NCBI GenBank assembly: GCA_963548925.1
Contig: CAUUWI010000001.1
Span: forward strand, 1 to 55,639
Direction: 5' to 3'
DNA: 55,639 nt
Source: an uncultured Leptotrichia sp.
Lineage (GTDB): Bacteria; Fusobacteriota; Fusobacteriia; Fusobacteriales; Leptotrichiaceae
Shown: one piece after another, positions 20,085 through 34,758 of the stretch
Layout of the letters: each line of letters opens with the position of its first letter
How positions within the stretch are numbered: the first letter of the stretch is position 1
Position numbers and translations under genes: made by a program
Notes under the pieces: generated by a model
The model's input: the letters and a program-made list of their open reading frames with translations, nothing else
The model's database searches: none
Told to the model about the DNA's origin: nothing

Positions 20085-20684
20085 CTATAATAAATTCGTC
20101 CATTTATCAAAATTATATTCTTTTGTACAAATTGCATCAAATTCTATTTTTTCATCTTTTATATGTTTAGCATATAATTCTAACTTTTCAGGCTGTCCTT
20201 GTAATTCTGGTGATACTAAACATAACTTATACCCCATACTTTTTATTTTTCTATAAATTTCATTATCAATAGGTAATTTACTAAAACAGTCTACCCATAC
20301 CCAATCAACTTTTCCCTGCATCTTTTCTAATGTATCCAATCCTTCATATTCAGAATATCTTAGGGCAATATTTTTTTCTCCTCTGTCAGATAATAATTTT
20401 ATCATTGGAAAGGAAGAATCAAGAAAAAAATAATCTTTTATATTATATTTTTTTAGTAATTCTAAAATTTTCAATTCTATTCTTTCACTTTTTATATTTA
20501 ATATCATTGTTCCATGATTATATTGTTTTAGGTATTCTTCAAAATCTTCTCCTAAAATAAAAGGATCATGATTTATATAGATTTTCCCATCAACATTATC
20601 CCTTAAATCTATCTCAACACCATATTTTTTAGGTAATTTTTCCAATTCTTCTAATTTATTTATTCTATGTGCTATAAATTCCAC
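20085..20684 (-). CDS. GDPD/PI-PLC-like phosphodiesterase (TIM barrel)
   Basis: IAHR, GVEIDLR, HDP, LNIK and DAICT motifs. Confidence 0.7.
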   Translation of the reverse strand: MEFIAHRINKLEELEKLPKKYGVEIDLRDNVDGKIYINHDPFILGEDFEEYLKQYNHGTMILNIKSERIELKILELLKKYNIKDYFFLDSSFPMIKLLSDRGEKNIALRYSEYEGLDTLEKMQGKVDWVWVDCFSKLPIDNEIYRKIKSMGYKLCLVSPELQGQPEKLELYAKHIKDEKIEFDAICTKEYNFDKWTNLL

Positions 20685-21388
20685 TACTCTACACCTCTTT
20701 TTTTCAGTTCTAAACTAAATGCCATTGTTCTCTTTATAAATTTCCATTTAGAGGCTAAACCTGTATTCCAAGTAGACTGCCCATGTATTCTTTCAGGAAA
20801 TAAAACATCAAATCTTATAACTTTTAGTTTATTCTTTTTAGCCATATATAATGTATACAAATCAAGAGAAAAATCTTTTGGAGGATTTACCCAGCTAGAA
20901 AAAAACTCTTTTGAAAAAATATTTGGCTGTGCATTTATATCGTACAGAATTTTACCCATAAAAATTGTTTCAAATACAGACATTCCAAATGTAAAAAATT
21001 GATCAAAAAATGGTCTTCCTTTTCTATTTCCTTTGACATAAATATTTTTATTCCAATTTTCTTTTTCTAAAATTTCATAAGATTTTATCACATCTTTAGG
21101 ATCCGTCTGCATGTCTGCATGCGTCCATCCTACAAAATCTCCTTTTGCTTCTTTTAATCCCTGTAATATTCCATATCCATATCCTTGATTCACAGGTACT
21201 AAAACTGTTCTTGCAAATGAAAACTTCGGTAAAAGCTCCTCAAATATTTTTGCTGAATTATCTGTTGAACCATTATTTACAAGAATTACTTCTATTTCTT
21301 CATTTTTAATAACATTATTAAATTTTTCAAGAATTAGAGGTATATTTTTTTCTTCATTGTAACATGGAACTATTATTGAAAGTTTCAT
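20684..21388 (-). CDS. GT2 polyprenyl-phosphate glycosyltransferase
   Basis: IVPCYNEE, NNGSTD, NQGYG, HADMQTDP and ERIHGQS; lies next to a GtrA gene. Confidence 0.85.
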   Translation of the reverse strand: MKLSIIVPCYNEEKNIPLILEKFNNVIKNEEIEVILVNNGSTDNSAKIFEELLPKFSFARTVLVPVNQGYGYGILQGLKEAKGDFVGWTHADMQTDPKDVIKSYEILEKENWNKNIYVKGNRKGRPFFDQFFTFGMSVFETIFMGKILYDINAQPNIFSKEFFSSWVNPPKDFSLDLYTLYMAKKNKLKVIRFDVLFPERIHGQSTWNTGLASKWKFIKRTMAFSLELKKRGVE

Positions 21389-21406: not shown

Positions 21407-21790
21407 TTATCTGAAAATTAAAAACTTTTGTCCTAAAAAATTTAATATTGTACTAACTCCTGTTGCACATAAAAATGCAAACATTTCACTTCCAAATAAC
21501 AAAAGTGTATATTTATTTACTTGCGAATTAATAAAAGCTGTTACTATGTACAATACTGCATATTTTAAAATTTCCTTTATCTGGAACTTTGGACTTTTAA
21601 ATGTCCAGTATTTATTAATTATAAATCCTACTATTGAACCACAAATAAATGATAATGTTTTTGCTATCGTTCTTTCTATACCTAATATCATAAAAATTTT
21701 ATATGTTAAAAAATCTACAATAACAGCCGTTCCTCCGCCTACGAGAAATTTTAAAATTTCCTTCTTGTCAAATTTATTTAAATTTATCAT
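21407..21790 (-). CDS. GtrA family flippase
   Basis: 127 aa with four TM segments; KFLVGG, NKYWTF and NFLGQKFLIF. Confidence 0.88.
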   Translation of the reverse strand: MINLNKFDKKEILKFLVGGGTAVIVDFLTYKIFMILGIERTIAKTLSFICGSIVGFIINKYWTFKSPKFQIKEILKYAVLYIVTAFINSQVNKYTLLLFGSEMFAFLCATGVSTILNFLGQKFLIFR

Positions 21791-22461
21791 TTTTTCAATA
21801 TCTCCAATAATTCATTAAAATTTTGTATTGACTGACATTTATCATTGTCTGTTTTAGAATACCATAAAGATTTCATACCATATTCCATAGATCCTAATAC
21901 ATCTTTTTTTAAACTGTCTCCTACAAATAAAACCTCTTCAGGAGTTACATCTAATTTTTCTAATATTTTATTATATATTTTAAAATTCGGTTTTTCAACT
22001 CCCACTTCTTCACTTGTAACTATCGCATCAATATACTTATCTATACCTAGTTTTCTTATTTTCCTATGCTGTATATGAACTGTCAAATCAGTACACACAC
22101 CTATTTTTATCTTTTTTTGCTTACAAAATTCTAAAACTTCCAATACGTTAGCATTCAATTTCATATTTTTTAAAATATGCTGCCAATATATTTCATACAT
22201 TTCAAGAGCTATAGAAAAAGGATTTTCATTTAAATTTTCAAGAGTTTTCTGACAATACAAAAGTCTATTATGCGAAGAAGCTACATTACCTAATGTACTC
22301 TTTACATCTTTTTTTGCCTTATCAAACGCTTTATAAAATTGTTCTTTTGCTATTTTTAGATTTTGACAAGTGTATTCACATATTTTGTTTATCCCTTGTT
22401 CATTTAACTCATTGTAGCTATAAAGAGTATCATCTAAATCAAATATAACTGCCTTTATCAT
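21787..22461 (-). CDS. HAD family phosphatase
   Basis: FDLDDTL, EKP and VGDSLKKD. Confidence 0.88.
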   Translation of the reverse strand: MIKAVIFDLDDTLYSYNELNEQGINKICEYTCQNLKIAKEQFYKAFDKAKKDVKSTLGNVASSHNRLLYCQKTLENLNENPFSIALEMYEIYWQHILKNMKLNANVLEVLEFCKQKKIKIGVCTDLTVHIQHRKIRKLGIDKYIDAIVTSEEVGVEKPNFKIYNKILEKLDVTPEEVLFVGDSLKKDVLGSMEYGMKSLWYSKTDNDKCQSIQNFNELLEILKK

Positions 22462-24530
22462 TAATTAATCCCTTCCTCTCTCATTTTATAGCTTATTGAA
22501 ATCAATATTATCATTTCGATTATTCCATTAAGATTATTTATATAACTTAAATCTTTGTTTAAAATCTCATCTAAATTTGGGATTATTCTTTCAGCAATGT
22601 TGCTAAAATTAATTATTTTATTATTTAAATCTTTACTACTGAAAACAACAACTTGTTTTGTTAAATCGTCTTTATAGTCATGATTAACAGCTATATTCAG
22701 TTGTCTAAGTTCAAAAATAAAGTTATCTAGGTTTATATCTGCATTTAATGTGATTTCTAAATCTAATTTAACACTATGATTTTCAACGGTATAATCTGTT
22801 AATGTTCTATCAAAATATTTTATTAATATATCTGCATATTTTTTTTGAGGATAAATATATTTTATTGCATCAGGCATTCTTTGCTCAATAGACTCCAAAA
22901 CCTTTTCCTTACTGTATCCTCTATGATAAGTGTCTCTTTGGATTTTCCAATATCTTCTTAATTTTTCATCAACATCCATATATATTTTTAAATCAAGATT
23001 TTTTCGCATTTTAGGAAGGTATAAAGCATGAAGCCCACATAATACAATATAAGGTTTGGACTTTACTTTAGAACCTTCAGTAAATTTTCCTGTATCATGA
23101 TCATATTCTACTCTAAATACATTTTGGCTTCTTCTTAAATTATTTAAATCTTCAGCTTGTTTATGAATATAGTTGGCTTTTGGATTTAATGCTGTTATCT
23201 GTTTCCACATTTCATTTCCTCTTTCCCATTTATGATCTCCATCACCTTCAAGAAAAAGAATATTTCTTTCTCCAAATATATTTTTTATCATTTCAATTAA
23301 TGTACTTTTACCTGCTCCGCTATCTCCTGATATACCAATAGAAAAAGATTTATTTTTTCTTTTATAGAATAAACTTTCTGCAATTCCCAATCGATACATC
23401 ATATAGCTTGTATACGTTAATACTGCTGTAAGCATTGTAAAAACTATATTTATAAACATAAAATTAGATATTTTTAAAAAACTTAGATTATAATTCATAA
23501 AATATAGATCAGTATATGTTGTCTTATGAGCAAATATAAAATATATTCCATATAATATGTTCAGAAATAGGTAAATATAAATATTTACATATTTATCCAT
23601 ACTGACATTTACAAAAAATATTGTAATAAAAGGTACAATCCAGACATACCATCCTGGCATAGGAAGAACCAATATTAAAAATATGGAAAATAATACTCCG
23701 CAGAAACTGTATAATAAATTTTTATTTATCTTTTTTAAGCTGAAAGCTTTTAAATAAATACACATAATTGCTAATATAGATAAATATATTCTATTATTTT
23801 GATATTGTAAAAATATACTGGTTACACCTTTTTGTTCTTTATTCATTATAACCATTTTCATAAAATTTTTCTCTGCATCGAAAAATGGTAAAATTATTAA
23901 TATTGTTAATAAAAAAGACATACCTATAGATTTTGTCGCCTCAACAAAGCCATCTTTTTTGTATATATACAGATATAGCAATGGAATAATTGCCAATATA
24001 TGAAGTTTTGAAGACAGTGCTAAAGCCAACATTATAGAAAAAATTGTATTATTTCGTTTATTTATTAAAAAATATAGAGAACCTAATAAAAATATCGTTG
24101 GAATTATATCCAGCTGACCATGCATATATGTAGCATAGAATATAATCGGGGAAGCAAAATATAACACTCCTATATATTTTTTTCTATTTGGAAACATTTT
24201 CACAAAAAAATACAACCCTAATAAATCAAATATAAGACTAGGAATTTTAAATAAAATATTTTTTATGAGAATATTTTTTACTCCTATTGACATAGTTCCT
24301 CCTACCAGCTCTATTAAAAACATGGTTGGAGGATAAGGAAACAAATTAACTTCATTTTTAAAAATAGAATAAGGATTTTCAAATTCTCCTTTTCTAATTT
24401 CATTAATGAAACCGTATATAAATTTCATAAATAAATTATTTTGATAATCTGATGAAAAAAATCCCATTGCTATTATTTTTAAAATTAATACCACAATAAT
24501 AAATATCTCAAATTTTTTAATCTTTTTCAC
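22461..24530 (-). CDS. GT-C-like multipass membrane protein fused to a phosphoribulokinase-like kinase
   Basis: N-terminal ~385 aa is multi-TM with FPYPP and HGQLD; C-terminal part has P-loop GDSGAGKST, TALNPKAN, YDHDTG, GLH, WKIQRD and YIYPQKKYAD; GTG start. Confidence 0.8.
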   Translation of the reverse strand: MKKIKKFEIFIIVVLILKIIAMGFFSSDYQNNLFMKFIYGFINEIRKGEFENPYSIFKNEVNLFPYPPTMFLIELVGGTMSIGVKNILIKNILFKIPSLIFDLLGLYFFVKMFPNRKKYIGVLYFASPIIFYATYMHGQLDIIPTIFLLGSLYFLINKRNNTIFSIMLALALSSKLHILAIIPLLYLYIYKKDGFVEATKSIGMSFLLTILIILPFFDAEKNFMKMVIMNKEQKGVTSIFLQYQNNRIYLSILAIMCIYLKAFSLKKINKNLLYSFCGVLFSIFLILVLPMPGWYVWIVPFITIFFVNVSMDKYVNIYIYLFLNILYGIYFIFAHKTTYTDLYFMNYNLSFLKISNFMFINIVFTMLTAVLTYTSYMMYRLGIAESLFYKRKNKSFSIGISGDSGAGKSTLIEMIKNIFGERNILFLEGDGDHKWERGNEMWKQITALNPKANYIHKQAEDLNNLRRSQNVFRVEYDHDTGKFTEGSKVKSKPYIVLCGLHALYLPKMRKNLDLKIYMDVDEKLRRYWKIQRDTYHRGYSKEKVLESIEQRMPDAIKYIYPQKKYADILIKYFDRTLTDYTVENHSVKLDLEITLNADINLDNFIFELRQLNIAVNHDYKDDLTKQVVVFSSKDLNNKIINFSNIAERIIPNLDEILNKDLSYINNLNGIIEMIILISISYKMREEGIN

Positions 24531-24544
24531 AATTATCTCCTTAT

Positions 24545-25588
24545 TTAAAGATTTTTTCTATATTTTTCAGAATCCCAATTTAAAAGAAAATTTTGTTCTT
24601 CTTCAGTTAAAAAATCCATTTCATCATTTTTATTTAATTCAAGTACCTGTAAATTAAAACTCAATACACTTTCAATCTCTTTGGCTTTTTTTATATTTGG
24701 TGCAATTATGTAAAATTCATTTTCAAAAAATATCACATTAAAACTACCATATTCTAAAACATGTCTTTTAGTAACTTTCAACATATCATCATTTTTATTT
24801 AATACTAATATTTTTTTGTTACAATAAATTAAACTGTCAGGTGAAAAACAATAATTTACTTTATCTATGTTATTATTCTTTATAAAGTTTTTAATTCTAT
24901 TATTTTCACATAAATATACAATATTATTTTCTATAAAATTTTCTAATTTTTTGTATAAATATGTGGAATTTCTGTATGCCTGCATATTAATCTTTAGTCT
25001 ATCTTCTAGTATCTTTAAAACATTTTCATGTAATTCAATAACCTCATCAACCTTTTTACCACTAACTATTAACCCATGGTTTTTCAAAAAAACTATATTT
25101 GCTTTTTGAGGATTATCTAATTTTGAAAATTTATCAAAAAATTCTTTAGCTAAAGAAATTCCAGGTGTTTGATAGTCTATTATCAAACTATCAGGAAACA
25201 TAGATTTTAACTCCTTCATTCCATTTGCTCTCGAAGTAAATATATTAATTAATACCGGATGAGTATGTAAAGTATATTTCTCTGTTATTGCATGTAAAAA
25301 AGTTTCAATTGAGGCTCTTTTCCCTTCAATTAGAGTACCTTCTAACAATTTCTTTTCATCACTGCGTTTTATTTCAAAATGACTTTCAAAGTAATCTACA
25401 ATTTTTTTATAATTTACTTTAGAGTAACCTACATTTTCTTCCATTTCGGAAAGCTGATATCCAGAAGATTTTATAAACATTGTTTCATCATCAATTTTTA
25501 CAGATGTATTTCCTCCACCTGCTTGTATAATATCTTCTCGCATTCCTGCATATTTGGACAGTTTTATTAAAACATTAATCTCTTTCAT
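24545..25588 (-). CDS. class II aldolase/epimerase (RhaD/FucA/AraD fold)
   Basis: GGGNTSVK, RASIETFLHA, HTHP and LKNHGL metal-binding motifs. Confidence 0.85.
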   Translation of the reverse strand: MKEINVLIKLSKYAGMREDIIQAGGGNTSVKIDDETMFIKSSGYQLSEMEENVGYSKVNYKKIVDYFESHFEIKRSDEKKLLEGTLIEGKRASIETFLHAITEKYTLHTHPVLINIFTSRANGMKELKSMFPDSLIIDYQTPGISLAKEFFDKFSKLDNPQKANIVFLKNHGLIVSGKKVDEVIELHENVLKILEDRLKINMQAYRNSTYLYKKLENFIENNIVYLCENNRIKNFIKNNNIDKVNYCFSPDSLIYCNKKILVLNKNDDMLKVTKRHVLEYGSFNVIFFENEFYIIAPNIKKAKEIESVLSFNLQVLELNKNDEMDFLTEEEQNFLLNWDSEKYRKNL

Positions 25589-25682: not shown

Positions 25683-27983
25683 TTATTCTTTTATTCCTAA
25701 ATAAACTCCTGTTTTTACATATGCTTCTTTATTATCTATTGTAAAAAATCTAATTTTTCTAATTTCTTCATTTTTATTATTTTTAAAACCTATAAATTGA
25801 TGATCTTTATTATTTAATTGTTGTATTTCTAATACTGGTTCTTCCTTTTCATTATAACCAACTATTTTTAATTTTTGTCTATTGAAAGCTCTAATTCTAT
25901 CAGCATATAGATACTTTACATTACAGTTTTTTTCAAGATTAATTTCATGAATTAACGGTGTATCCAAATTTGTTATTCTCACTATAAAAAAACGGTTGAT
26001 GTTAACAAAATTTTCATCTAATTTTTGCAATTTGTTATCATAAAAATATAAATTTAAATTACCACTTATCATAAAAATATCATCACCAACTGGTATTAAA
26101 GTATCAGTATTTAAGAAAAATTTATAATATTTCCCCCAGTCAGTCATAACTTCTGCACTTTTTATTGAAAAATTTTCACTAGTCTCACCAATCTCATTAT
26201 TATCAAAAACAGAAAAACGTATTATAAAAATGAATAACATTATAACATAAAATATATTTTTTATAAAAAGCCAACCACTAAAAGATATTCCTTTCTTTTT
26301 TAGTTTACTTGCTAAAATAGCCATTACATTATTCAAAAATATTACAATTAATATAATAAGTAAAATGATTATAAACATTGAATGTCTTCTTATAACCATA
26401 TTATCAGCTTTATGTAACCAATCAAAATTAGAATTTGAAGACATATCAATTTTATAAAACCATGTATTTAGTAATATCACTTCAGAAATTATAAAAATCA
26501 GTGCTATTGAAATAATACTGTTTTTATTTTTAAATTTAATACTCTTATATAAGAAAAAGCATATTAATGTACTCCAAATTAGGAAAAAAATAATATTTAA
26601 ACTGATAATATTAGAACTTGTAATTTCTGGATAAAATAAAAAAGTAATATATTTTGTAGATTGGTAAAATATTATTTTCAAAAGTTGCCAAATACTTGTG
26701 TTAAGTGCGAAACCTCCATTATTAGATACTATTTTTATATATAATAATTCTAAAAAACTAGACAAAACTACAGTAAATATAAAAATCTTTTCTCTTTTCT
26801 TTATTTTTTTATAAAATATTGTTAAAATTAAAATCCCTATTGGAATCAAAGTAACATAATAAGCTTTTGAAATACAAATAAAAAATGTAAAAAGTAAAAA
26901 AACTAAGTATTTTCTTTTAGAAAGATTTTCAAAATTCAACAACGAGATTAAAACTATTCCTCCAATTCCATAATAAGCAAAATTAAAAAAATAATGGCCT
27001 TCAATACTTGAGGTAAAAGTTACACCACCACCTAATATTACAGCTATACATAATCTAAAAAGTATATTTCCATATTTTTTATAATCTTTCAACACAAAAA
27101 TAGAACCCATTAAAGTAATTATATAAATTCCAATATTTTGCATTAAGTATATAGACAATTTTAAATTAAAACCAAATATTTTTACTATAAATAAAGTAAT
27201 TATTCTTTGAAAAAAAGGCCAATAACCTACATCTGAAATAAAAAGATTATCCAATACATTTTTGTGTACTGCACTTATCATAAAATTATTTAATGTTTCA
27301 TAATAAGGCTGTGCATTAAATGTTAATATCGGAATCTTAACATTTATTAAAAAGAAAATCATAAAACTTGTAAATATATATATTTTATTACTATTTTTAT
27401 TTTCCTCTTTTGATAATTTAAAAATTTTTAAAAAGCAAAGTACTGTAAGACCTAAAAATAATATTTGAAATATAACAATTCTATCAAATTTATAATATTG
27501 CATTTCTAATACAAGACCTTTATTTATAGCTACATTATTTTCAATCACATTTCCAAGTGAAGTATCATTTGAATAATATAATGATACTATATTTCCTTTT
27601 TCTCCATCAATTCCTTCTACTTTTAGTGTAGCTTCTCCTTCTTTTAATCCATGAAAATTAAAATCTATATTATTGATTTCACGATTTTTTAATGTGTAAG
27701 CATATATTATTTTCTCATCTTTATATTTTCCTTGTTCTAAAACAACTTTTATACGTCCCTGATTTATTCTTGAATAGGTTTCTATTCTTAAGCCTAACCG
27801 ATATATTTTTCCTGGAATATATATTTTCTGAGCTATTTTTGAATTTTTATCAATTTCTTGCGTAATTTCTGAGTTATAATAATTAGTTGCTACTTTTTTA
27901 TCTAAATTACCAATTATATAAGAAATCCCAGGAATCACAATTCCCATAATAAGGAAAAAAATCCATATAAATGTTTTTTTCAT
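25683..27983 (-). CDS. multipass membrane protein, probable GT-C glycosyltransferase with soluble N- and C-terminal domains
   Basis: 766 aa with many TM segments; loop QPYYET...GYWPFFQR resembles Gtr-type transferases; cassette context. Confidence 0.6.
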   Translation of the reverse strand: MKKTFIWIFFLIMGIVIPGISYIIGNLDKKVATNYYNSEITQEIDKNSKIAQKIYIPGKIYRLGLRIETYSRINQGRIKVVLEQGKYKDEKIIYAYTLKNREINNIDFNFHGLKEGEATLKVEGIDGEKGNIVSLYYSNDTSLGNVIENNVAINKGLVLEMQYYKFDRIVIFQILFLGLTVLCFLKIFKLSKEENKNSNKIYIFTSFMIFFLINVKIPILTFNAQPYYETLNNFMISAVHKNVLDNLFISDVGYWPFFQRIITLFIVKIFGFNLKLSIYLMQNIGIYIITLMGSIFVLKDYKKYGNILFRLCIAVILGGGVTFTSSIEGHYFFNFAYYGIGGIVLISLLNFENLSKRKYLVFLLFTFFICISKAYYVTLIPIGILILTIFYKKIKKREKIFIFTVVLSSFLELLYIKIVSNNGGFALNTSIWQLLKIIFYQSTKYITFLFYPEITSSNIISLNIIFFLIWSTLICFFLYKSIKFKNKNSIISIALIFIISEVILLNTWFYKIDMSSNSNFDWLHKADNMVIRRHSMFIIILLIILIVIFLNNVMAILASKLKKKGISFSGWLFIKNIFYVIMLFIFIIRFSVFDNNEIGETSENFSIKSAEVMTDWGKYYKFFLNTDTLIPVGDDIFMISGNLNLYFYDNKLQKLDENFVNINRFFIVRITNLDTPLIHEINLEKNCNVKYLYADRIRAFNRQKLKIVGYNEKEEPVLEIQQLNNKDHQFIGFKNNKNEEIRKIRFFTIDNKEAYVKTGVYLGIKE

Positions 27984-27986
27984 TTT

Positions 27987-28796
27987 TTATCCTCCCAAAT
28001 AATTTTTATCTTCTTTTACAAACTCTTTCCAGTACTTTATTGTATCCTGATATTCTTCATAATCTTTTGGAGTTCCCCAGCCAATATATCTGTTTATTTC
28101 AAAAACTTTTGCACTATATCCTAAATCTAATAAGTGTGAAATTACACTGTCAACATAAAATTCATTGTTTATTCTGTCATTTTCTTGTATCATTTTTTCT
28201 GCACTTTTCACAAATACACTTCCTTCTTTAAACCAGAAAGTTGCCACTATTGCATGATCATTCATTGGAGTATCTGATATAGCTTTTTTTATTGACAATC
28301 CTGTTATTTCATCTTTATCATTTACTTTAACCCATCCGTAAGCATTTGGATTTTTCAAAACTGCTTCATTATTTCTATATGTAAAAACCAATGCATCACA
28401 TTCTTTTTTCATTTTTTCAAATTTATTCTGATCAATAATCATTCCATTGTCACAGCCAGCAATTAGCAGCTCTTCATTATTATTTATTTTTTCTTTTGCC
28501 AATAAGCAGGTACATGCCTGTCCTTCTGTTAATTTATCTACTGTTATGAAATTCGCTTTAGGGAAAAATTCTTTTATTTTTTCTTCAATACCATCTTTTT
28601 TATGAAAATCCCTATCTACGTATATAAGATTATTTCCATCAGTTTCTAATCCAGGCAAATCCAATGTAGCACAAACAACCATAGGATATTCTTTCCCAGT
28701 TCTTCTGTCTATTGTGGGGATAACAGGTTTACTTAATTTATATCCTGCATCTGAAAATCTTTTTCCTTCTCCTGCCATTGGGATTAATATTTTCAT
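27987..28796 (-). CDS. sugar-phosphate nucleotidyltransferase-like protein
   Basis: IPMAGEGKRF..AGY..SKP, TEGQACT, NNEFY and WGTPKD. Confidence 0.8.
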   Translation of the reverse strand: MKILIPMAGEGKRFSDAGYKLSKPVIPTIDRRTGKEYPMVVCATLDLPGLETDGNNLIYVDRDFHKKDGIEEKIKEFFPKANFITVDKLTEGQACTCLLAKEKINNNEELLIAGCDNGMIIDQNKFEKMKKECDALVFTYRNNEAVLKNPNAYGWVKVNDKDEITGLSIKKAISDTPMNDHAIVATFWFKEGSVFVKSAEKMIQENDRINNEFYVDSVISHLLDLGYSAKVFEINRYIGWGTPKDYEEYQDTIKYWKEFVKEDKNYLGG

Positions 28797-29579
28797 TTAC
28801 TTCACCATTCCTTTCACAGTTTCAATCCAAAAAAGATATTCTTTTAAGTCTTCAGGAGTTCCCCATTGACAAAATTTTTTTACATTTGTAGGAACCCAAA
28901 CTTTTAAACCATCTTTCACTATAAAGTTATACGGAAGACTTGCATAAAATTCTCCATTTATAGCCTGATTCTCATTTTCAATCAGTTTTCGACAATATTT
29001 TTTCAATATTTCTCCTGTTTTAAAATAATAAACCCCGGGAGAGTGTTTAGCTTTCAGCTTATCCTCTTCAAAAGAATATTTTTCTCTGATTTCTATCAAA
29101 TCATTATTTTCATCTGTCAAGCATGATGCATAATAATTCTTTTCAGGCAATAAATTAGGATGAAATCCCGTATAGCAAGGAACTGCACCTTCACTTCCTC
29201 TACTTGTTACTTCCTGCTTAAATTTTTCAAAATCCCAAGACATATAAAAATCACAATAATTTATTATACATTGTTCGTTATCGTCTATTTTCTCTGATGC
29301 TCGTAATACATCATATACAGGGCCTTTTTTTACCCAGCTATCTATTTCAAAAATTTTCCCATCAGGTGCTAATTCTAAAAGTCTTTTTCTCATTTCTGGA
29401 TCGTTATCTAGATGTTCTTTTCGACAAATAAATAAAAAATCTTTTTCATTTGGATACATTCCTTTTACAATCCATTCTATCATTGACTTTCCTTGAACTT
29501 TTATAAATGGTTTTAAATCTTTATATCCAGCTGCTACAAATCTTGAACCGTAGCCTGTCATTGGTATTATTATTTTCAT
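28797..29579 (-). CDS. sugar-phosphate nucleotidyltransferase-like protein, paralog of the previous gene
   Basis: IPMTGYGSRF..AGY..LKP, NYCD, NGEFY and WGTPED. Confidence 0.8.
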   Translation of the reverse strand: MKIIIPMTGYGSRFVAAGYKDLKPFIKVQGKSMIEWIVKGMYPNEKDFLFICRKEHLDNDPEMRKRLLELAPDGKIFEIDSWVKKGPVYDVLRASEKIDDNEQCIINYCDFYMSWDFEKFKQEVTSRGSEGAVPCYTGFHPNLLPEKNYYASCLTDENNDLIEIREKYSFEEDKLKAKHSPGVYYFKTGEILKKYCRKLIENENQAINGEFYASLPYNFIVKDGLKVWVPTNVKKFCQWGTPEDLKEYLFWIETVKGMVK

Positions 29580-30255: not shown

Positions 30256-30687
30256 CTATTTCTTAAATACAAATAATTTAGAAAAGATATAATTCAAGAC
30301 AATCACAACAATATTAGATATAATTTTAATTCCAAGACTAAACATCCCTTGCTGTGAATAAGAAATATATTTTACTACAAAAAAGTCTACTCCAACTACA
30401 ACAAAAATTTGATCTATAATAGCTGTTACTCCTCTTGCCAATATAAATTGAATAAATTCTTTTATTATTGATTTCCCCTTATTTTTACTTTCAAAAACCC
30501 ATATTCTATTAGTAAAATATTGGAATAATATACAAATAATAGTGTCTAATATGTTGCCTACTCCTGTTGGTAATTTCCATATATTTACAAATAAATAAAA
30601 TAACAATATATTTAAAATTGTTGCAAGTACTCCAAAAAATAAATATAAAAACGTTTCTTTATTTGCTAATTTTTTTATTAAACTCAT
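30256..30687 (-). CDS. GtrA family flippase
   Basis: YLFFGVLAT, TNRIWVF and NYIFSKLFVF; four TM segments. Confidence 0.88.
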   Translation of the reverse strand: MSLIKKLANKETFLYLFFGVLATILNILLFYLFVNIWKLPTGVGNILDTIICILFQYFTNRIWVFESKNKGKSIIKEFIQFILARGVTAIIDQIFVVVGVDFFVVKYISYSQQGMFSLGIKIISNIVVIVLNYIFSKLFVFKK

Positions 30688-30698
30688 ATTTCACCAAC

Positions 30699-31607
30699 TT
30701 ATTTTTTATTAACTGATCTATAAATATAATCTTTTGAATTTAAAGAATTTTGTAAAATATGATGCAAATATCTTATTATAATGCTTAAAATTAAAAAAAT
30801 TCCAAAAAATCCTAGACTTAAAACTATAAATAAAGAAGCCCAACCTTCAACAGTTTCCTTCACAATTCTTGTAACTAAACTATAAATTACTCCCATGCCA
30901 AATAATGCAAAAAAAACAAAAGCCAATCTTTGAGTAAATAACATAATAGCATCTGTATAATAAATTAAAGTGTCAAACATTAACATTAAATTCTCAGAAA
31001 ATCCTCTATTATTTTTATAATTCATATCTACTACTATAGAAGAAGTTTTTAATCCAGAGAGAACATATGCAACATTTCTATTTATAATTCTCTTTCCTAC
31101 TTCTACTACTTTATTTTGTCCTCTTCTTGAAGATAAAGTCATAACAGATGAACTAATATCTTCATTAAATGAATTTTTAAAGTATTTATTTAAAATACTA
31201 TAAAATATTTTAGAAGATTTTCTTAATTTTTTTGGTGTTAAAAATACAAAATCGTATCCTTCTTGACTCTTTTTATACATTTCTATTATTTTATTATAAT
31301 CTATATCAAATGAAATATCTTCTATTTCGATAATATAATCACCTATTGCTATTGCTGTTCCAGCATTTAATGCTTGCTGGGTTCTATGTTTTATTGGCAA
31401 TTTTATTTCTGTATGTTTAAAGTCTAAAGAATTTAGTGATTTTAAAGAACTATTTTTAGAAGTATTATCTACTATTACAATCTCACTGTTTTTAAAATTA
31501 TTTTTTAATATCTCATTTATATTTTGAATCTTAGTAATAATCTCTTTATTTTCTTCATTTATGACTAAAACAACTGATATATAATTCTGTTCTAAATTTT
31601 TTATCAT
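30699..31607 (-). CDS. atypical GT2 (GtrB-like) polyprenyl-phosphate glycosyltransferase
   Basis: YISVV, SEIVIVDN, AGTAIAIGDY; two C-terminal TM segments with VEGWAS; degenerate DXD. Confidence 0.7.
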   Translation of the reverse strand: MIKNLEQNYISVVLVINEENKEIITKIQNINEILKNNFKNSEIVIVDNTSKNSSLKSLNSLDFKHTEIKLPIKHRTQQALNAGTAIAIGDYIIEIEDISFDIDYNKIIEMYKKSQEGYDFVFLTPKKLRKSSKIFYSILNKYFKNSFNEDISSSVMTLSSRRGQNKVVEVGKRIINRNVAYVLSGLKTSSIVVDMNYKNNRGFSENLMLMFDTLIYYTDAIMLFTQRLAFVFFALFGMGVIYSLVTRIVKETVEGWASLFIVLSLGFFGIFLILSIIIRYLHHILQNSLNSKDYIYRSVNKK

Positions 31608-31621
31608 TTTTTTCCTCCATA

Positions 31622-32740
31622 TTATAAAATTTCATCTAAATCGTACATCGTATTTATTTTTCCAGAAAATATCGTATAAAAATCTGGATTTTGAGAATAT
31701 TGTTTTATAATTGTCGGCCTTGAATCATCTATCTCAGAAGCAACTAAAATAGGTTTTATAGTAAATAATGATTTAACATACTTTATTTCTATATCTTCAT
31801 TTAGATATTTTTTTGCAATTTGAACCATTTCTTCAAATGCTGTTTCTGGAAAAATTCCGCAATGAATACAACCTTTTGAATGTTCAGGATGTTTTTGCTT
31901 TTCTACATCTCCACAACAATCGTATGGTGGTAAATTTTCATAATTTGTAAAATGTGGTGTTCTTGAAACAGTTGTTATAGAATGATAACCTGTTAAACCA
32001 AATGGCATCAATGAGAAAAAAGGTCCATCCATAACTGTCAATCCAACATTTTTAATATTATCTGAAACTTCACACAAAATTACTTCACAAAATTCATATT
32101 TTATTGGTAAATATTCAAATCCTAATAAATCATGGATTATATTGATTCCCGCATAGGTTGCATTTAAAACAAACGGTGCCGAATATGTTTCTCCATTCGA
32201 AGTTTTAAACACATATTCTTTCTCTTCTTTTTTTATTTTTACTATCTTCGTTTCAAATTTAAAATTACATCCTGATCTTACTAATTCTTTATACAGCATT
32301 TTCCCAATTATCTTAGCATCAAATGAATATTCCTGTGTCAAGAATGCCTTATCAATAGTGTTTTCATTAAAGAATTTACCTTTAGGAATTTCATCACATC
32401 TTACATTTAAATTATCACAAAATTTCTGAAATTGTTCTCCATTTGCCCAACTATAGTCAGATGCTACTGCATAAACTTTTTCAAATTTATCATTGATACC
32501 TTCTTTAAAGTCATTATAAAATCTATTGAAATATTTAGCTGATTTTGATGCTGTAGAAAAAGACCTTGGGTAGTGATAACCATTATGTAACCTAGCTTGA
32601 TTTATATAAGAACCTCTATTGAATGGCTCTTTTTCTACTTCTATTATCAATATTTTTTCATTAGGATTTTTTTCTAAACTTCGTTTTGCAGCATACATAC
32701 CATATATTCCTGCTCCTATTATAATTTTGTTATATTTCAT
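31622..32740 (-). CDS. FAD-dependent oxidoreductase (DAO-like)
   Basis: IIGAGIYG, SYINQARLHNGYHYPRS, TVMDGPFFS and SGKI; ATG 32740 follows an AAGG RBS. Confidence 0.85.
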   Translation of the reverse strand: MKYNKIIIGAGIYGMYAAKRSLEKNPNEKILIIEVEKEPFNRGSYINQARLHNGYHYPRSFSTASKSAKYFNRFYNDFKEGINDKFEKVYAVASDYSWANGEQFQKFCDNLNVRCDEIPKGKFFNENTIDKAFLTQEYSFDAKIIGKMLYKELVRSGCNFKFETKIVKIKKEEKEYVFKTSNGETYSAPFVLNATYAGINIIHDLLGFEYLPIKYEFCEVILCEVSDNIKNVGLTVMDGPFFSLMPFGLTGYHSITTVSRTPHFTNYENLPPYDCCGDVEKQKHPEHSKGCIHCGIFPETAFEEMVQIAKKYLNEDIEIKYVKSLFTIKPILVASEIDDSRPTIIKQYSQNPDFYTIFSGKINTMYDLDEIL

Positions 32741-32763
32741 ATGATAACCTTTCCTTTCAATTA

Positions 32764-34758
32764 TCAATTTAATTTGTATAATTTGATGTCTTTTACTACA
32801 AATTTTATTTTACTATTATTTGTTAAAGTAAATTCCATTTTAGGAGTTTCACTACTTAATTCAAATTCTATATCCGTTTTTTCTTGATTACTTGAAATTT
32901 TCTTCAAACTATTTATTTTTTCATTAACAGTAGATGTTATTTCAAACATACCTGTTGAGTTTTTTGGAAAATCCACCAAAAATTCTACTTTGTATTTTCC
33001 TGCAGTTAATGTAACATAAGGTCCGTATAAAACACTATTTTCTTTCATTTCGACATTCCCATTATTTACAACTGCACCATTAAGAGTATATTGCATTGCT
33101 AAAAAACTATTCCACTCTTTCCATCTATTAGTACTTTCATCATAAGAACAAACATTTTCTAATTTATAATCGTTTATCCAACTATAAATCGTTTTAAAGT
33201 AATTTGCATTTAAAGGATTGTATATTCCAAACCATTTATCAGGAAATTGGCTTGAATTACCATTAATTGTTTTTATTTTAAAATGATTGGCTATTTCAAA
33301 AGCATTATTTTGATAAATATATTCAGGTTTTTCTTTTCTTTCACTATTTACAATATAAAATACTTTACATTCTTTTGGTGGATTTTTAATTTTTGATAAA
33401 TACTTTTTTTCTGTTATTCGGTTCCAGGTTGAATTAACACCATTTATTCTTATATTTGAAATCCATAATGAAATAAATAATAAAATAAATAAATGTTTCT
33501 TTTTCTGTTTATTTTTTATATTTGAAAATATATAATTTCCCATTATTGAAGTTGCGATAGCCATAGGAAACGTTAGATATAAAAAATATCTTATTGGAGC
33601 TCTAACAGAAGATGCACCAGGAAAAAATTTATAAATTAAATACCATAAGGATACACCATTTGATGAAATTTTTATTGTAATTAATACACTTACTATAATT
33701 GCTAATACAAAAGAAAATAGTATCGAAGAATTTTTTATTAAAATTTTTTTCTTACAAATATAAAAAACATAAATAAAAAACAATACAAATACCGTTATTA
33801 AAATAATAGAAAATCCCATATCTTGTTCAAGCAATGATCTTTCTGATAATTTCATTCTCATTATTATATTTCCCAATAATAAGTTATCTTCACCTACATT
33901 TATTAAATCAACAACTTCAGGCATAAAAAGTACAGGATTTTTATAAGGATATCCTCCACTTTTTTTCAATAATGGTAAATATAAATTTATAAAAGGAAGA
34001 ATTAAAATCACTGTATAAATCATATAAAATAAAATATCTTTCCATATTTTACATAAAGTTTCTTTTATATATATATAGCTTTCTTTATTTTTTTCTATAA
34101 TTAATTTAAAAATAATTATTCCTAAAAAAGTTAAAATAAATAATGTCGTAAAAAATGCAATATACCAAGCTGTATATAATATTAATATGTACCAACTAAT
34201 TATAAAAAAACCATATAATCTTCTTTTTTTGTTATTATTAAAAAATATAATAAAATTCATTACAAATATTGTAAAAAGTGGTAACATACTACAAACCATT
34301 AATTGAGTATGTCCTACATGTTTAGCATATGTAGAAGAAAAAGAAAATGCAACTGTACCAAACAGGGACCATTCTTTACTCAATTTAAACTTTTTATCTA
34401 ATAAAATAAACATTGATATTGTTCCGATTACATGTACTAAAATTAAAGTATATTTATAAGCATTAAACATATCCATTCCTAGTATTCTAAAAAAACTATG
34501 AATTAGACCAAAAAATAAAAACATATCTGAATATGCTAAAACATTTTTAACAGGATAAAACATAGAAAGTTCTCCAAATTTTTCATATCCCTTAAAAAAA
34601 TTATACCAATGTTCTACTATTATTGTTGTTAATTTTCCATCTCCATTATTTCCAAATAGATTATTTGAAAAAAGAATATTTCTGAAAAAAAATATTTCAG
34701 ATAATATTAAACATATAACAATAAACAAACCGCAATGCAAACAATTTTTTTTATTCAT
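32764..34758 (-). CDS. multipass membrane protein, probable GT-C glycosyltransferase with C-terminal YGPY domain
   Basis: GDG..EHW, FYP...LAYSD, H.QL, SVRAPIR and TINGNSSQFP; many TM segments. Confidence 0.65.
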   Translation of the reverse strand: MNKKNCLHCGLFIVICLILSEIFFFRNILFSNNLFGNNGDGKLTTIIVEHWYNFFKGYEKFGELSMFYPVKNVLAYSDMFLFFGLIHSFFRILGMDMFNAYKYTLILVHVIGTISMFILLDKKFKLSKEWSLFGTVAFSFSSTYAKHVGHTQLMVCSMLPLFTIFVMNFIIFFNNNKKRRLYGFFIISWYILILYTAWYIAFFTTLFILTFLGIIIFKLIIEKNKESYIYIKETLCKIWKDILFYMIYTVILILPFINLYLPLLKKSGGYPYKNPVLFMPEVVDLINVGEDNLLLGNIIMRMKLSERSLLEQDMGFSIILITVFVLFFIYVFYICKKKILIKNSSILFSFVLAIIVSVLITIKISSNGVSLWYLIYKFFPGASSVRAPIRYFLYLTFPMAIATSIMGNYIFSNIKNKQKKKHLFILLFISLWISNIRINGVNSTWNRITEKKYLSKIKNPPKECKVFYIVNSERKEKPEYIYQNNAFEIANHFKIKTINGNSSQFPDKWFGIYNPLNANYFKTIYSWINDYKLENVCSYDESTNRWKEWNSFLAMQYTLNGAVVNNGNVEMKENSVLYGPYVTLTAGKYKVEFLVDFPKNSTGMFEITSTVNEKINSLKKISSNQEKTDIEFELSSETPKMEFTLTNNSKIKFVVKDIKLYKLN

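Follow-up and report, generated by a model that had tools for sequence, protein, structure and literature searches.

An uncultured Leptotrichia sp. encodes a single polypeptide in which a membrane domain predicted to have the GT-C glycosyltransferase fold is joined to a phosphoribulokinase (PRK)-type kinase. We put at roughly 0.6 the probability that this polypeptide is a bifunctional enzyme of the inner membrane belonging to a conserved, horizontally spread surface-glycan cassette, with a putative pentulose-donor chemistry. Most likely, the kinase would start the synthesis of a pentulose-derived, lipid-linked donor, and the GT-C half would transfer that donor outside. A literature search on the GT-C-PRK fusion or its cassette found no description of either.

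The fusion gene and its kinase domain

The window is the whole stretch of DNA that was analyzed, 55,639 nucleotides, and every feature given below lies on its minus strand. The fusion is one open reading frame of 689 aa with a GTG start (22461..24530). The sequence-only reading had given its position and length correctly, and the plus-strand frame across the same interval is riddled with stops. Direct reading of the sequence places a Shine-Dalgarno sequence, AAGGAGA (24536..24542), 5 nt 5' of the GTG, and the ribosome-binding site is strong. The motifs quoted earlier (FPYPP, HGQLD, TALNPKAN, YDHDTG, GLH, WKIQRD, and YIYPQKKYAD) are all in the translation. Relatives of the fusion are labeled "uridine kinase" in public sources; they include 689-aa proteins that are 100 to 88% identical in Leptotrichia-like sources and proteins about 53% identical in Clostridia. 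The full-length AF2 model had a pLDDT of 95.4 and a pTM of 0.92.

By model and alignment, residues ~390 to 689 (22464..23363 for residues 390 to 689) are a complete class II/archaeal-type phosphoribulokinase fold with PRK-type substrate-site residues. Pfam PF00485, which takes in both PRK and uridine kinase, matched residues 398 to 575 at 124 bits (gathering cutoff, 22) and matched 70/70 relatives. By far the best model was NCBIfam NF005655 (cyanobacterial/plant-type PRK) at 197.7 bits, under its cutoff of 236, whereas the uridine kinase models NF004018 and TIGR00235 gave 79.6 bits (cutoff, 180) and 72.6 bits (cutoff, 220.3). A phmmer search of the PDB agreed, with PRKs at 1e-36 to 1e-24 and uridine kinase at 8e-15, and the earlier view that the sequence blocks resemble PRK over uridine kinase is borne out. 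Moreover, Foldseek aligned PRK chains over 302 to 362 columns (about 313), including the C-terminal domain, with TMt values of 0.74 to 0.79, and aligned uridine kinases over 182 to 192. The PRK-type C-terminal domain, absent from uridine kinases, is predicted by the model to be present in the kinase half.

Class II (cyanobacterial/plant) and archaeal PRKs, with the "cyanobacteria specific PRK" structures 6kev, 6hzk, 5b3f, and 9qko/9qkp/9qkn, share this fold over ~300 residues, C-terminal domain included; the literature search found no paper on 9qko/9qkp/9qkn. PRKs and the fusion kinase have in common a P-loop, intact here, and the blocks D-x-x-H-x-x-x-R, TAL-P-AN, Y-x-H-x-TG, GLH, WK-x-x-RD, R-x-x-D, and PQ...AD, and the aligned Synechococcus PRK 6kev shows TALDPRAN, YNHETG, EGLHP, WKIQRD, and YIEPQ..HAD. 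At least 13 PRK-specific columns are common to fusion kinases and PRKs. Twelve residues (D403, H433, R437, N453, H478, G481, H501, W528, K529, R551, D554, and Q562) match 8/8 PRKs, differ in 12/12 uridine kinases, and are kept in 33 to 35 of 35 fusion kinases (D403, 31/35). H433, R437, Y476, H478, K529, R532, and R537 are kept in 34 to 35 of the 35 and align with the PRK sugar-phosphate site, in roles that we take from Rhodobacter PRK mutagenesis. Besides the NF005655 score under the cutoff, a difference from these PRKs is that Ala and Glu stand at the positions of the 6kev Cys in the P-loop and the Cys before the D-x-x-H block, presumably the redox-regulatory pair. At the site of the Walker-B Glu of PRK, the fusion kinases vary (S in 15, E in 8, and C in 7 of 35), with C498 in the window's protein; the 8 reference PRKs carry H instead of Glu.

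Phylogeny against PRKs and uridine kinases had been named beforehand as a check on the assignment. The uridine kinase clade split from the fusion kinases with 100% SH-aLRT support, and the kinase half lies outside it. The fusion kinases form their own group, among which apparently stand-alone kinases of 326 to 361 aa nest. The PRK references, from a search seeded with P0351 (at least 69% identity), are one clade on a long branch, and thus the tree can give no placement of the fusion kinases with respect to PRKs of cyanobacteria, plants, and archaea.

Perhaps the substrate is not free ribulose 5-phosphate (Ru5P) but something membrane bound or cassette specific, such as the hydroxyl of a polyprenyl-phosphate-linked sugar, or another ketose phosphate (heptulose or hexulose), and the fusion brings the kinase there. 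Union with a lipid-handling membrane domain is near-universal (among the matches listed, 108/150 relatives of the membrane half are 640 to 760 aa), which fits such a substrate, as do the score under the PRK cutoff, the separate group in the tree, and the variable Walker-B position. The conserved columns at the sugar-phosphate site argue for Ru5P, however, as do the stand-alone kinases nested in the group. Moreover, the coupled HAD phosphatase and class II aldolase match a known route of soluble metabolites from ribulose 1,5-bisphosphate (RuBP) to ribulose 1-phosphate (Ru1P; PMC9700705). We consider a different substrate unlikely.

The membrane domain and its topology

The membrane half (residues 1 to 386; 23373..24530; ~12 TM segments) was modeled separately because the full-length Foldseek search gave kinases alone among the matches listed. 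Folded alone in AF2, it reached a pLDDT of 96.5 and a pTM of 0.94. The best 20 of 48,161 chains in VIA were GT-C without exception, and the next had a Z score of 6.5. Matches included GPI mannosyltransferase I (Z of 27.9), ALG3 (25.5), a further match (25.0), and PimE (18.7), with 328 to 349 residues aligned at 9 to 12% identity, and Foldseek returned ALG3, GPI mannosyltransferase I, ArnT, ALG6, and PimE. We are confident that residues 1 to ~386, as modeled, adopt a GT-C fold like that of GT87, ALG3, and the GPI mannosyltransferases, the fold that the sequence-only reading had set beforehand as a test of itself. Pfam and NCBIfam found no match to residues 1 to 390 of the window's own protein, and GT87 (PF09594) did not match it at an E value of up to 1. 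Among 70 relatives scanned with Pfam at E values of up to 1, GT87 matched 29 and ALG3 matched 7, and two relatives exceeded the GT87 gathering cutoff (26.5 and 32.6 versus 25).

Conservation and loop charges were taken from a 97-member alignment. Invariant or near-invariant residues are P65, D102 (96/97), P128, H137, Q139, D141 (97/97), K175 (97/97), W294, W297, and P300. Net loop charges over the 97 members alternate as predicted by a 12-TM model with both termini inside, consistent with the earlier expectation that the kinase is cytoplasmic and the transferase site lies across the membrane. The fit would place the kinase in the cytoplasm and have H137/Q139/D141, K175, and W294/W297 face outward; D102 lies within a TM helix, unlike the other invariant polar residues.

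GPI mannosyltransferase I, ALG3, ALG6, and PimE (GT87) have the same membrane fold and use polyprenyl-phosphate sugars, and GT87 and ALG3 are the families matched in relatives. Like those enzymes, the fusion appears from its sequence to have a long first outer loop and a conserved polar cluster facing outward. The catalytic Asp of GT-C enzymes usually sits in the first outer loop, whereas the fusion family has no single invariant acid there among 97 sequences: D28 is D or E in just 48/97, some D or E occurs within residues 26 to 33 in 86/97, and the invariant acids D102 and D141 are elsewhere. The fusion also differs in its low identity to those enzymes and in bearing a cytoplasmic kinase; no matched solved GT-C chain is described with one.

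Alternatively, the GT-C-fold half may be a scaffold, a lipid-binding module, or an anchor, like PIG-U of GPI transamidase, and another GT-C protein would carry out transfer. PIG-U is noncatalytic, and its chains are among the top fold matches (Z of 21.6 to 23.9); one relative matches Pfam PIG-U at 22.1 bits, under the cutoff. A noncatalytic role would also suit the first outer loop without a fixed acid. A candidate for the transferring protein is at hand in the second, PMT_2-type GT-C gene present in 47/80 related loci, whose product may be what actually consumes the lipid-linked donor, and here in a 766-aa open reading frame. Such a gene was not found, however, within the fetched flanks of the other 33/80 loci. 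Furthermore, the top fold matches are active mannosyltransferases, and D141, K175, H137, and Q139 gather on the predicted outer face as for an active site. We regard a purely structural role as rather unlikely, and we favor the membrane half as a transferase.

The cassette and a proposed pathway

The fusion gene was compared across 80 related loci, found with a query of 15 closer sequences. Directly downstream in 74/80 loci, and present in 75/80, is a gene for a HAD-IA phosphatase (Pfam HAD_2; 224 aa; 21787..22461), whose ATG overlaps the fusion stop as TAATG. Its best NCBIfam match of 40 models is NF053830, RuBP 5-phosphatase, at 173.7 bits (under the cutoff of 330), a match that is not specific because the generic TIGR02253 also gives 144.8 bits. 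Upstream of the fusion in 67/80 loci is a class II aldolase-family protein with an extra C-terminal region (347 aa; 24545..25588; PF00596, 56.4 bits; profile match to 3m4r, 1.4e-20). It is of the RhaD/YuxG-N-terminal type, not FucA, and with its invariant GGGN, S-I-E, H-x-H, and H-G columns it retains the metal and phosphate sites.

Two paralogous nucleotidyltransferase-like proteins, NT269 (27987..28796) and NT260 (28797..29579), are also encoded. NT269 has weak NCBIfam RmlA/GlmU matches, a profile match to the NDP-sugar pyrophosphorylase 4evw, and an invariant G-x-G-x-R-F..K-P; a single-sequence PDB search gave no match. NT260 matches PF12804 (E value of 1.1e-4) and, by profile, 4evw (7.5e-8) and GalU-type enzymes. 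An NT269 homologue is directly upstream of the fusion in 80/80 loci, and the two types are one open reading frame of at least 500 aa in 49/80.

Downstream lie a small GtrA-family membrane protein (127 aa; 21407..21790; PF04138, 72.1 bits), a soluble GT2 glycosyltransferase (234 aa; 20684..21388; PF00535, 82.8 bits), and a conserved soluble protein (199 aa; 20085..20684; mean column identity, 73%). GtrA occurs in just 23 to 24 of 80 loci, and 5/5 relatives of 818 to 840 aa are GtrA-GT-C-PRK triple fusions with GtrA N terminal. The GT2 gene is downstream of the fusion in 75/80 loci; its NCBIfam matches to ArnC, PgfS, and PpgS are weak and under cutoff, and the protein is presumably of the polyprenyl-phosphate glycosyltransferase type. 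The 199-aa protein, present in 74/80 loci, had no match in Pfam, NCBIfam, PDB phmmer (chance level, E value of ~0.4), or PDB profile searches, and Pfam on 28 family members gave only spurious weak matches. Atlas clusters named PI-PLC/glycerophosphodiester phosphodiesterase (0.96 to 0.97) are a lead only, and together with motifs that we take to be relevant they suggest that it is possibly a PI-PLC/GDPD-like phosphodiesterase. The 766-aa open reading frame, between the NT269 and aldolase genes (25683..27983; 13 hydrophobic segments by hydropathy), has no Pfam match, and homologues are near the cassette in 6/80 loci. Its nearest named Atlas clusters, likewise a lead only, are GT39/PMT_2/DUF2142 (0.88 to 0.89), and it may be a second protein of the GT-C type. 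An HMM built from the PMT_2-type neighbor had no match in the window.

Glycosyltransferase genes form a run in the window, and GtrA, GT2, and the GT-C half stand together in one operon, as in GtrA/GtrB/GtrC-type systems and the mycobacterial PpgS/Rv3632/GT-C trio. Fusion of GtrA to the GT-C domain in some relatives is a further Gtr-like trait. Those systems take a common UDP-sugar, whereas the cassette brings a dedicated kinase, a phosphatase, an aldolase-type enzyme, and two nucleotidyltransferases, and GtrA is missing from most loci. Nucleotide-heptose synthesis runs from a kinase to the GmhB HAD phosphatase to a nucleotidyltransferase, and the same enzyme order here would give sugar phosphate, bisphosphate, sugar 1-phosphate, and NDP-sugar; the cassette kinase, however, comes from an unrelated family.

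Within this context, we propose the following pathway. By phosphorylating C1 of Ru5P, or of a closely similar ketose phosphate, the kinase would form the 1,5-bisphosphate, from which the translationally coupled HAD phosphatase would remove the 5-phosphate to leave Ru1P, like the haloarchaeal RuBP phosphatase. An activated pentulose-derived sugar might then be produced from it by the aldolase-family enzyme (class II) together with both nucleotidyltransferases and the GDPD-like protein. GT2, with GtrA where present, would place the sugar on polyprenyl phosphate and pass it across the membrane, and the GT-C half would attach it, outside the cell, to a polymer of the surface. With the first committed kinase fused to the final transferase, donor synthesis would be held at its site of use. 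The earlier proposal that the kinase has been repurposed for glycan donor synthesis draws its support from context, namely the conserved cassette and the triple fusions. PRK phosphorylates the C1 of a ketose, not the anomeric carbon. The phosphate of Ru1P is on a non-anomeric carbon, and getting from there to a glycosyl donor thus takes chemistry beyond any of the proposed steps. In the most specific form of the proposal, RuBP would be a biosynthetic intermediate instead of a substrate for RuBisCO, and Ru5P would pass through RuBP, cyclized Ru1P, and a nucleotide-linked and then polyprenyl-phosphate-linked pentulose or pentofuranose that the same polypeptide would transfer on the other side of the membrane; we hold this sequence of steps only tentatively and find it doubtful as a whole.

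The closest precedent for the early steps is the haloarchaeal non-carboxylating pentose bisphosphate pathway, where a HAD RuBP phosphatase and a Zn Ru1P aldolase were biochemically shown in an operon without RuBisCO (PMC9700705). The cassette likewise has in one operon a candidate maker of RuBP, a HAD phosphatase, and a class II aldolase-family protein of the Zn type, and no RuBisCO. The cassette differs in that PRK, not R15P isomerase, would supply the RuBP, in that the aldolase belongs to another subgroup and has a C-terminal addition, and in having a context of biosynthesis and not of nucleoside catabolism.

Perhaps kinase, phosphatase, and aldolase instead form a catabolic or supply shunt from Ru5P through RuBP and Ru1P that ends in DHAP plus glycolaldehyde, its output a C2/C3 building block or nothing glycan specific and the link to the transferase incidental. 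Enzymes of these types were biochemically shown to run from RuBP through Ru1P to these products without RuBisCO in haloarchaea (PMC9700705), the best HAD match is RuBP phosphatase, and the aldolase retains its metal and phosphate sites. Nevertheless, the three genes are tied to a pair of nucleotidyltransferases (80/80), GT2 (75/80), and the GT-C domain amid a run of glycosyltransferase genes, GtrA is fused to the kinase-bearing protein in some relatives, and the aldolase has an extra region and is not of the FucA type. A shunt seems improbable, and donor synthesis remains our preferred reading.

Distribution and significance

The GT-C-PRK architecture is widespread, with 817 clusters at 50% identity. 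The fusion is in 1/15 genus relatives, and a separate uridine kinase of ~220 aa is in 15/15; fusion and cassette are accessory in the genus. The sequence-only reading had remarked on the absence of RuBisCO from the window. PF00016 was likewise not found in the source genome (74% complete), and none of the fusion-carrying genomes had it (0/6), whereas it matched in 5/14 control genomes; the carriers do not show the co-occurrence with RuBisCO that marks a Calvin-cycle enzyme. Unlike known PRKs, the fusion kinase is joined to a 12-TM domain and sits in a glycan cassette in carriers without RuBisCO. A reading of the protein as a uridine kinase anchored in the membrane and serving pyrimidine salvage has in its favor the public names, the breadth of PF00485, and the lack of another PF00485 gene in the assembled 74% of the source genome. 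It is barely credible given the scores far under the uridine kinase cutoffs, the PRK-type columns, tree, and C-terminal domain, and a normal uridine kinase in 15/15 genus relatives, 14 of them without the fusion.

PRK is regarded as an enzyme of the Calvin cycle or of the archaeal RuBisCO pathway. If our reading is true, a widespread, RuBisCO-independent PRK works in a surface glycosylation machine, which would be an anabolic role for RuBP. The family, with its 817 clusters, is misannotated as uridine kinase. Our reading would also mean an undescribed route to a surface sugar in many gut and oral anaerobes, with the first and last steps coupled across the bilayer in one protein. The fusion would be a compact test case for how cytoplasmic donor synthesis is coupled to extracytoplasmic GT-C transfer. 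The cassette may be the origin of unusual pentulose- or pentofuranose-type envelope residues in Lachnospiraceae, Clostridia, Leptotrichia, Treponema, and others and, as it is accessory within the genus, probably contributes to strain-specific surface antigens.

Fold and topology of the membrane half

The gene for the GT-C-phosphoribulokinase (PRK) fusion lies on the minus strand at 22461..24530 and encodes 689 amino acids from a GTG start. The sequence-only reading had the coordinates and length exactly right, all of the motifs that it quoted were found in the translation, and their PRK counterparts were seen in an alignment to the Synechococcus PRK structure 6kev. Read on the plus strand, the same interval is stop-rich. 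AAGGAGA is located 5 nt upstream of the GTG. At the other end, the stop codon and the ATG that opens the following gene share bases in TAATG; thus, the fusion is a translationally coupled operon gene.

The membrane half had been called GT-C-like, and structure prediction agreed. Residues 1 to 390, folded alone by AlphaFold2 with 96 homologues, gave a model of pLDDT 96.5 and pTM 0.94, and its meaningful Foldseek matches were exclusively GT-C: ALG3 (E value of 7.8e-4, TMq 0.61), GPI mannosyltransferase I (TMq 0.70), ArnT, PIG-U, ALG6, and PimE. Moreover, a Foldseek-independent search of 48,161 chains gave a best Z of 27.9 (9wno, 343 aligned, rmsd 3.9), with 25.5 for ALG3, 25.0 for ALG6, 23.9 for PIG-U, 18.8 for ArnT, and 18.7 for PimE; the top 20 rows were GT-C throughout, after which Z fell to 6.5. 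The window's own protein matched no Pfam GT-C model. Relatives matched GT87 in 29 of 70 cases (best, 1.6e-7) and ALG3 in 7 of 70, and two longer relatives exceeded the cut-off of GT87 itself. Across 97 family members, P65, P128, D141, K175, and W297 are invariant, and F64, Y66, D102 (96/97), H137, Q139, W294, and P300 vary very little. No acidic residue is fixed in the first outer loop; the D28 position is acidic (D or E) in 48 of the 97 members, and some D or E occurs at residues 26 to 33 in 86.

A cytoplasmic kinase had also been anticipated, and loop charge is consistent with it. With loops set by the helices of the predicted model, the family-wide net charge alternates along the membrane half: +1.4 at the N terminus, -2.2 at 25-67, +1.8 at 113-118, -1.0 at 137-141, +1.6 at 157-160, +1.7 at 190-194, -0.4 at 217-249, +1.3 at 265-269, -1.0 at 335-356, and +1.5 at 387-395. 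By the positive-inside rule, these values fit 12 predicted membrane passes with both termini in the cytoplasm, in which case residues 68 to 94 would be a membrane-embedded portion of the first outer loop. The kinase would then be inside, H137/Q139/D141, K175, N230/Q233, and W294/W297 would be outside, and D102 would sit in a transmembrane helix. A 13-pass reading, which would place the kinase and every basic loop outside, was rejected.

The kinase half and its distribution

The kinase half was proposed to resemble PRK more than uridine kinase (udk), and profile, fold, and residue comparisons all bear that out. In Pfam, the sole assignment was PF00485 (124 bits, residues 398 to 575), a broad family that takes in both PRK and udk. 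Among NCBIfam models, the cyanobacterial-type PRK NF005655 scored 197.7 bits, under its cut-off of 236, compared to 79.6 and 72.6 bits for uridine kinase models and 62.9 bits for class I PRK. In a sequence search of the PDB, PRKs came out on top (9qko at 1.2e-36, 6kev and 6hzk at 1.1e-35, archaeal 5b3f at 9.6e-28) and udk ranked after them at 7.8e-15. Finally, in a full-length AlphaFold2 model (pLDDT 95.4, pTM 0.92), the C-terminal ~300 residues matched whole PRK chains over 302 to 362 columns (TMt 0.62 to 0.79), whereas udk chains aligned over just 182 to 192. Given that difference in coverage, the fusion carries a PRK-type C-terminal domain.

Residues were compared in an alignment of 35 fusion kinases (the window's own plus a random sample of 34 from the remaining 96 rows in the family alignment), 6 short relatives of 94 matches, 8 PRKs of 120 listed, and 12 of the 23 udks detected in relatives. 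D403, H433, R437, N453, H478, G481, F483, L500-H501, W528, K529, R551, D554, and Q562 are common to the fusion kinases and all eight PRKs, and all 12 udks deviate at such columns. These columns presumably include the catalytic and Ru5P-phosphate-binding residues defined by mutagenesis of Rhodobacter PRK. The position of the PRK Walker-B Glu is Ser in 15, Glu in 8, and Cys in 7 of the 35 fusion kinases, the window's protein having Cys, and in the eight reference PRKs it is His, not Glu. In the fusion, Ala and Glu occupy the two positions, one in the P-loop and one ahead of the D-x-x-H block, at which 6kev carries the Cys residues that we take to be its redox switch.

A quick maximum-likelihood tree of 61 kinase rows separated udk from all other rows with 100% SH-aLRT, which shows on phylogenetic grounds that the kinase half is not a udk. 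The PRK clade (96%) had a long stem (2.98) and joined the fusion group at its base, which was unresolved. The PRK set of the tree was a single Gemmatimonadota-like clade, from which the nearest PRK lineage of the fusion kinases is not readable. One fusion row, P0222, had a very long branch. Apparently stand-alone kinase halves (P0274, P0290, and P0303; 326 to 361 aa on contigs of 40 to 113 kb) and membrane halves (P0201 and P0246; 375 to 392 aa) nest among the fusion forms. We note that the Gemmatimonadota-like P0365 (528 aa) has PRK and RuBisCO-large Pfam domains in one predicted product, which could reflect either a genuine fusion or two genes merged during gene calling.

The fusion is widespread. 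The membrane half alone retrieved 817 cluster representatives at an E value of ≤1e-3, and 468 at 1e-10, from 1.84 billion proteins. Of 150 listed relatives among the 817, 108 were 640 to 760 aa long, 6 were at least 800 aa, 7 were 500 to 639 aa, and 29 were under 500 aa, many of these last probably fragments. Fusion to the kinase is the rule for this membrane domain. All five scanned relatives of 818 to 840 aa had an N-terminal GtrA domain (64 to 88 bits) and are GtrA-GT-C-PRK triple fusions. Named relatives occur in Leptotrichia, Clostridium butyricum, C. botulinum, and Eubacterium, every one labelled "uridine kinase." An ordinary udk of ~220 to 235 aa is present in 15/15 genus relatives and a ~698-aa open frame additionally in one (G004); the fusion gene is accessory and is not the housekeeping udk. 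The assembly that contains the window (G000, 74% complete) yielded neither a second PF00485 gene nor the canonical udk, which probably falls within the missing 25% of the genome. The lack of RuBisCO noted for the window extends to carrier genomes: the large subunit was found in none of six (G000, G004, and those of loci L006, L014, L050, and L023), with positive controls.

A conserved cassette

In the window, the minus strand reads, in order, NT260 (28797..29579) and NT269 (27987..28796), two nucleotidyltransferase-like paralogs; a 766-aa, 13-TM open reading frame (25683-27983); a class II aldolase (24545..25588); the fusion; a HAD protein (21787..22461); GtrA (21407..21790); GT2 (20684..21388); and a 199-aa protein (20085..20684). 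Three GT4s, an acetyltransferase, a GT2, and an epimerase come after the 199-aa gene. Across 80 fusion-bearing loci, from Lachnospiraceae, Oscillospiraceae, Clostridium, Paenibacillus, Selenomonadaceae, Synergistaceae, Treponema, and others, the usual order is aldolase, NT260, NT269, fusion, HAD, (GtrA), GT2, 199-aa protein. Counts are lower bounds, as contig ends cut some loci. All 80 have nucleotidyltransferase-like genes immediately upstream of the fusion. HAD was seen in 75 loci, of which 74 place it on the same strand and no more than 5 kb away (median gap, 45 bp). GT2 was likewise seen in 75, with 74 for the 199-aa protein, 67 for the aldolase, and only 23 to 24 for GtrA. The two nucleotidyltransferases are a single open reading frame of at least 500 aa in 49 loci and separate genes in 28, which suggests that the paralogs work as a pair. 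Loci with the fused form, which lies at ~8.3 to 10 kb in locus coordinates, include L021, L026, L029-L032, L034, L036, L037, and L041-L045.

Upstream of the cassette, the window holds a second Gtr-like module (30256-34758, minus strand) with a 664-aa, 11-TM open reading frame lacking a Pfam match, a DAO-type FAD oxidoreductase (381 aa), a 302-aa GT2 whose C terminus has TM segments, and another GtrA (143 aa). This module may modify a lipid-linked sugar independently of the cassette and include an oxidation step.

A proposed donor pathway

Computation establishes both folds, the PRK-type residues, a likely topology, the conservation of the cassette, and the fusions to GtrA. As to the soluble enzymes, the nucleotidyltransferase profiles match the NDP-sugar pyrophosphorylase 4evw and GalU-type enzymes. 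The aldolase retains class II phosphate and metal motifs, matches 3m4r at 1.4e-20, and in NCBIfam matches rhamnulose-1-phosphate aldolase/dehydrogenase proteins over their N-terminal aldolase portion. The 199-aa family (73% mean column identity) lies near PI-PLC/GDPD-named Atlas clusters (0.96 to 0.97), a lead for which HMM searches found no support. The best NCBIfam match of the HAD protein is haloarchaeal RuBP 5-phosphatase (173.7 bits; cut-off, 330); the generic TIGR02253 scored 144.8. In haloarchaea without RuBisCO, a HAD phosphatase strips the 5-phosphate of RuBP to give cyclized Ru1P, on which a Zn-dependent FucA-type aldolase of the same operon acts (PMC9700705). We propose that the PRK half would form RuBP or a close analogue and that HAD would yield the 1-phosphate. 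The aldolase-family enzyme, the nucleotidyltransferase pair, and the 199-aa protein may then produce an activated sugar, which GT2, plus GtrA where present, would load onto polyprenyl phosphate for transfer outside by the GT-C half.

The weak link of this pathway is that the phosphate of Ru1P sits on a non-anomeric carbon, so the route calls for isomerization, a cyclic-phosphate step, or activation at the anomeric carbon, and that step was matched to no cassette enzyme. The nucleotide-heptose pathway runs from kinase through the GmhB phosphatase to nucleotidyltransferase, and the enzyme order of the cassette resembles it. Perhaps the kinase substrate is not the one assumed but is lipid-linked or another ketose phosphate, which we consider unlikely.

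Quite unlikely, too, is that the GT-C module is noncatalytic, like PIG-U, and that transfer is carried out by a PMT_2-type protein or the 766-aa protein. A PMT_2-type (ArnT/PMT-type) GT-C of ~516 to 669 aa is encoded in 47 of the 80 loci, usually right behind the 199-aa gene (e.g., L039:5278-6924 and L069:14215-15816), and thus many cassettes hold two GT-C proteins. No such gene was detected within the window. The 766-aa protein has no Pfam match, and its nearest named Atlas clusters are GT39/PMT_2/DUF2142 (0.88 to 0.89; an Atlas lead only). Its slot, flanked by NT269 and the aldolase, is empty in most other loci, and only 6 of 80 have a homologue close to the cassette.

A mere shunt from Ru5P to dihydroxyacetone phosphate and glycolaldehyde is improbable. 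The uridine kinase of the database label is scarcely tenable, being contradicted by NCBIfam scores, fold coverage, the separate udk across the genus, residue columns, and the tree.

The component families and the three-component Gtr logic are already known. A literature search of papers available without subscription found nothing on a GT-C-PRK fusion or this cassette. What appears to be new is the GT-C-PRK architecture, a PRK that would act independently of RuBisCO in a glycan cassette, and the donor chemistry that the two may support.
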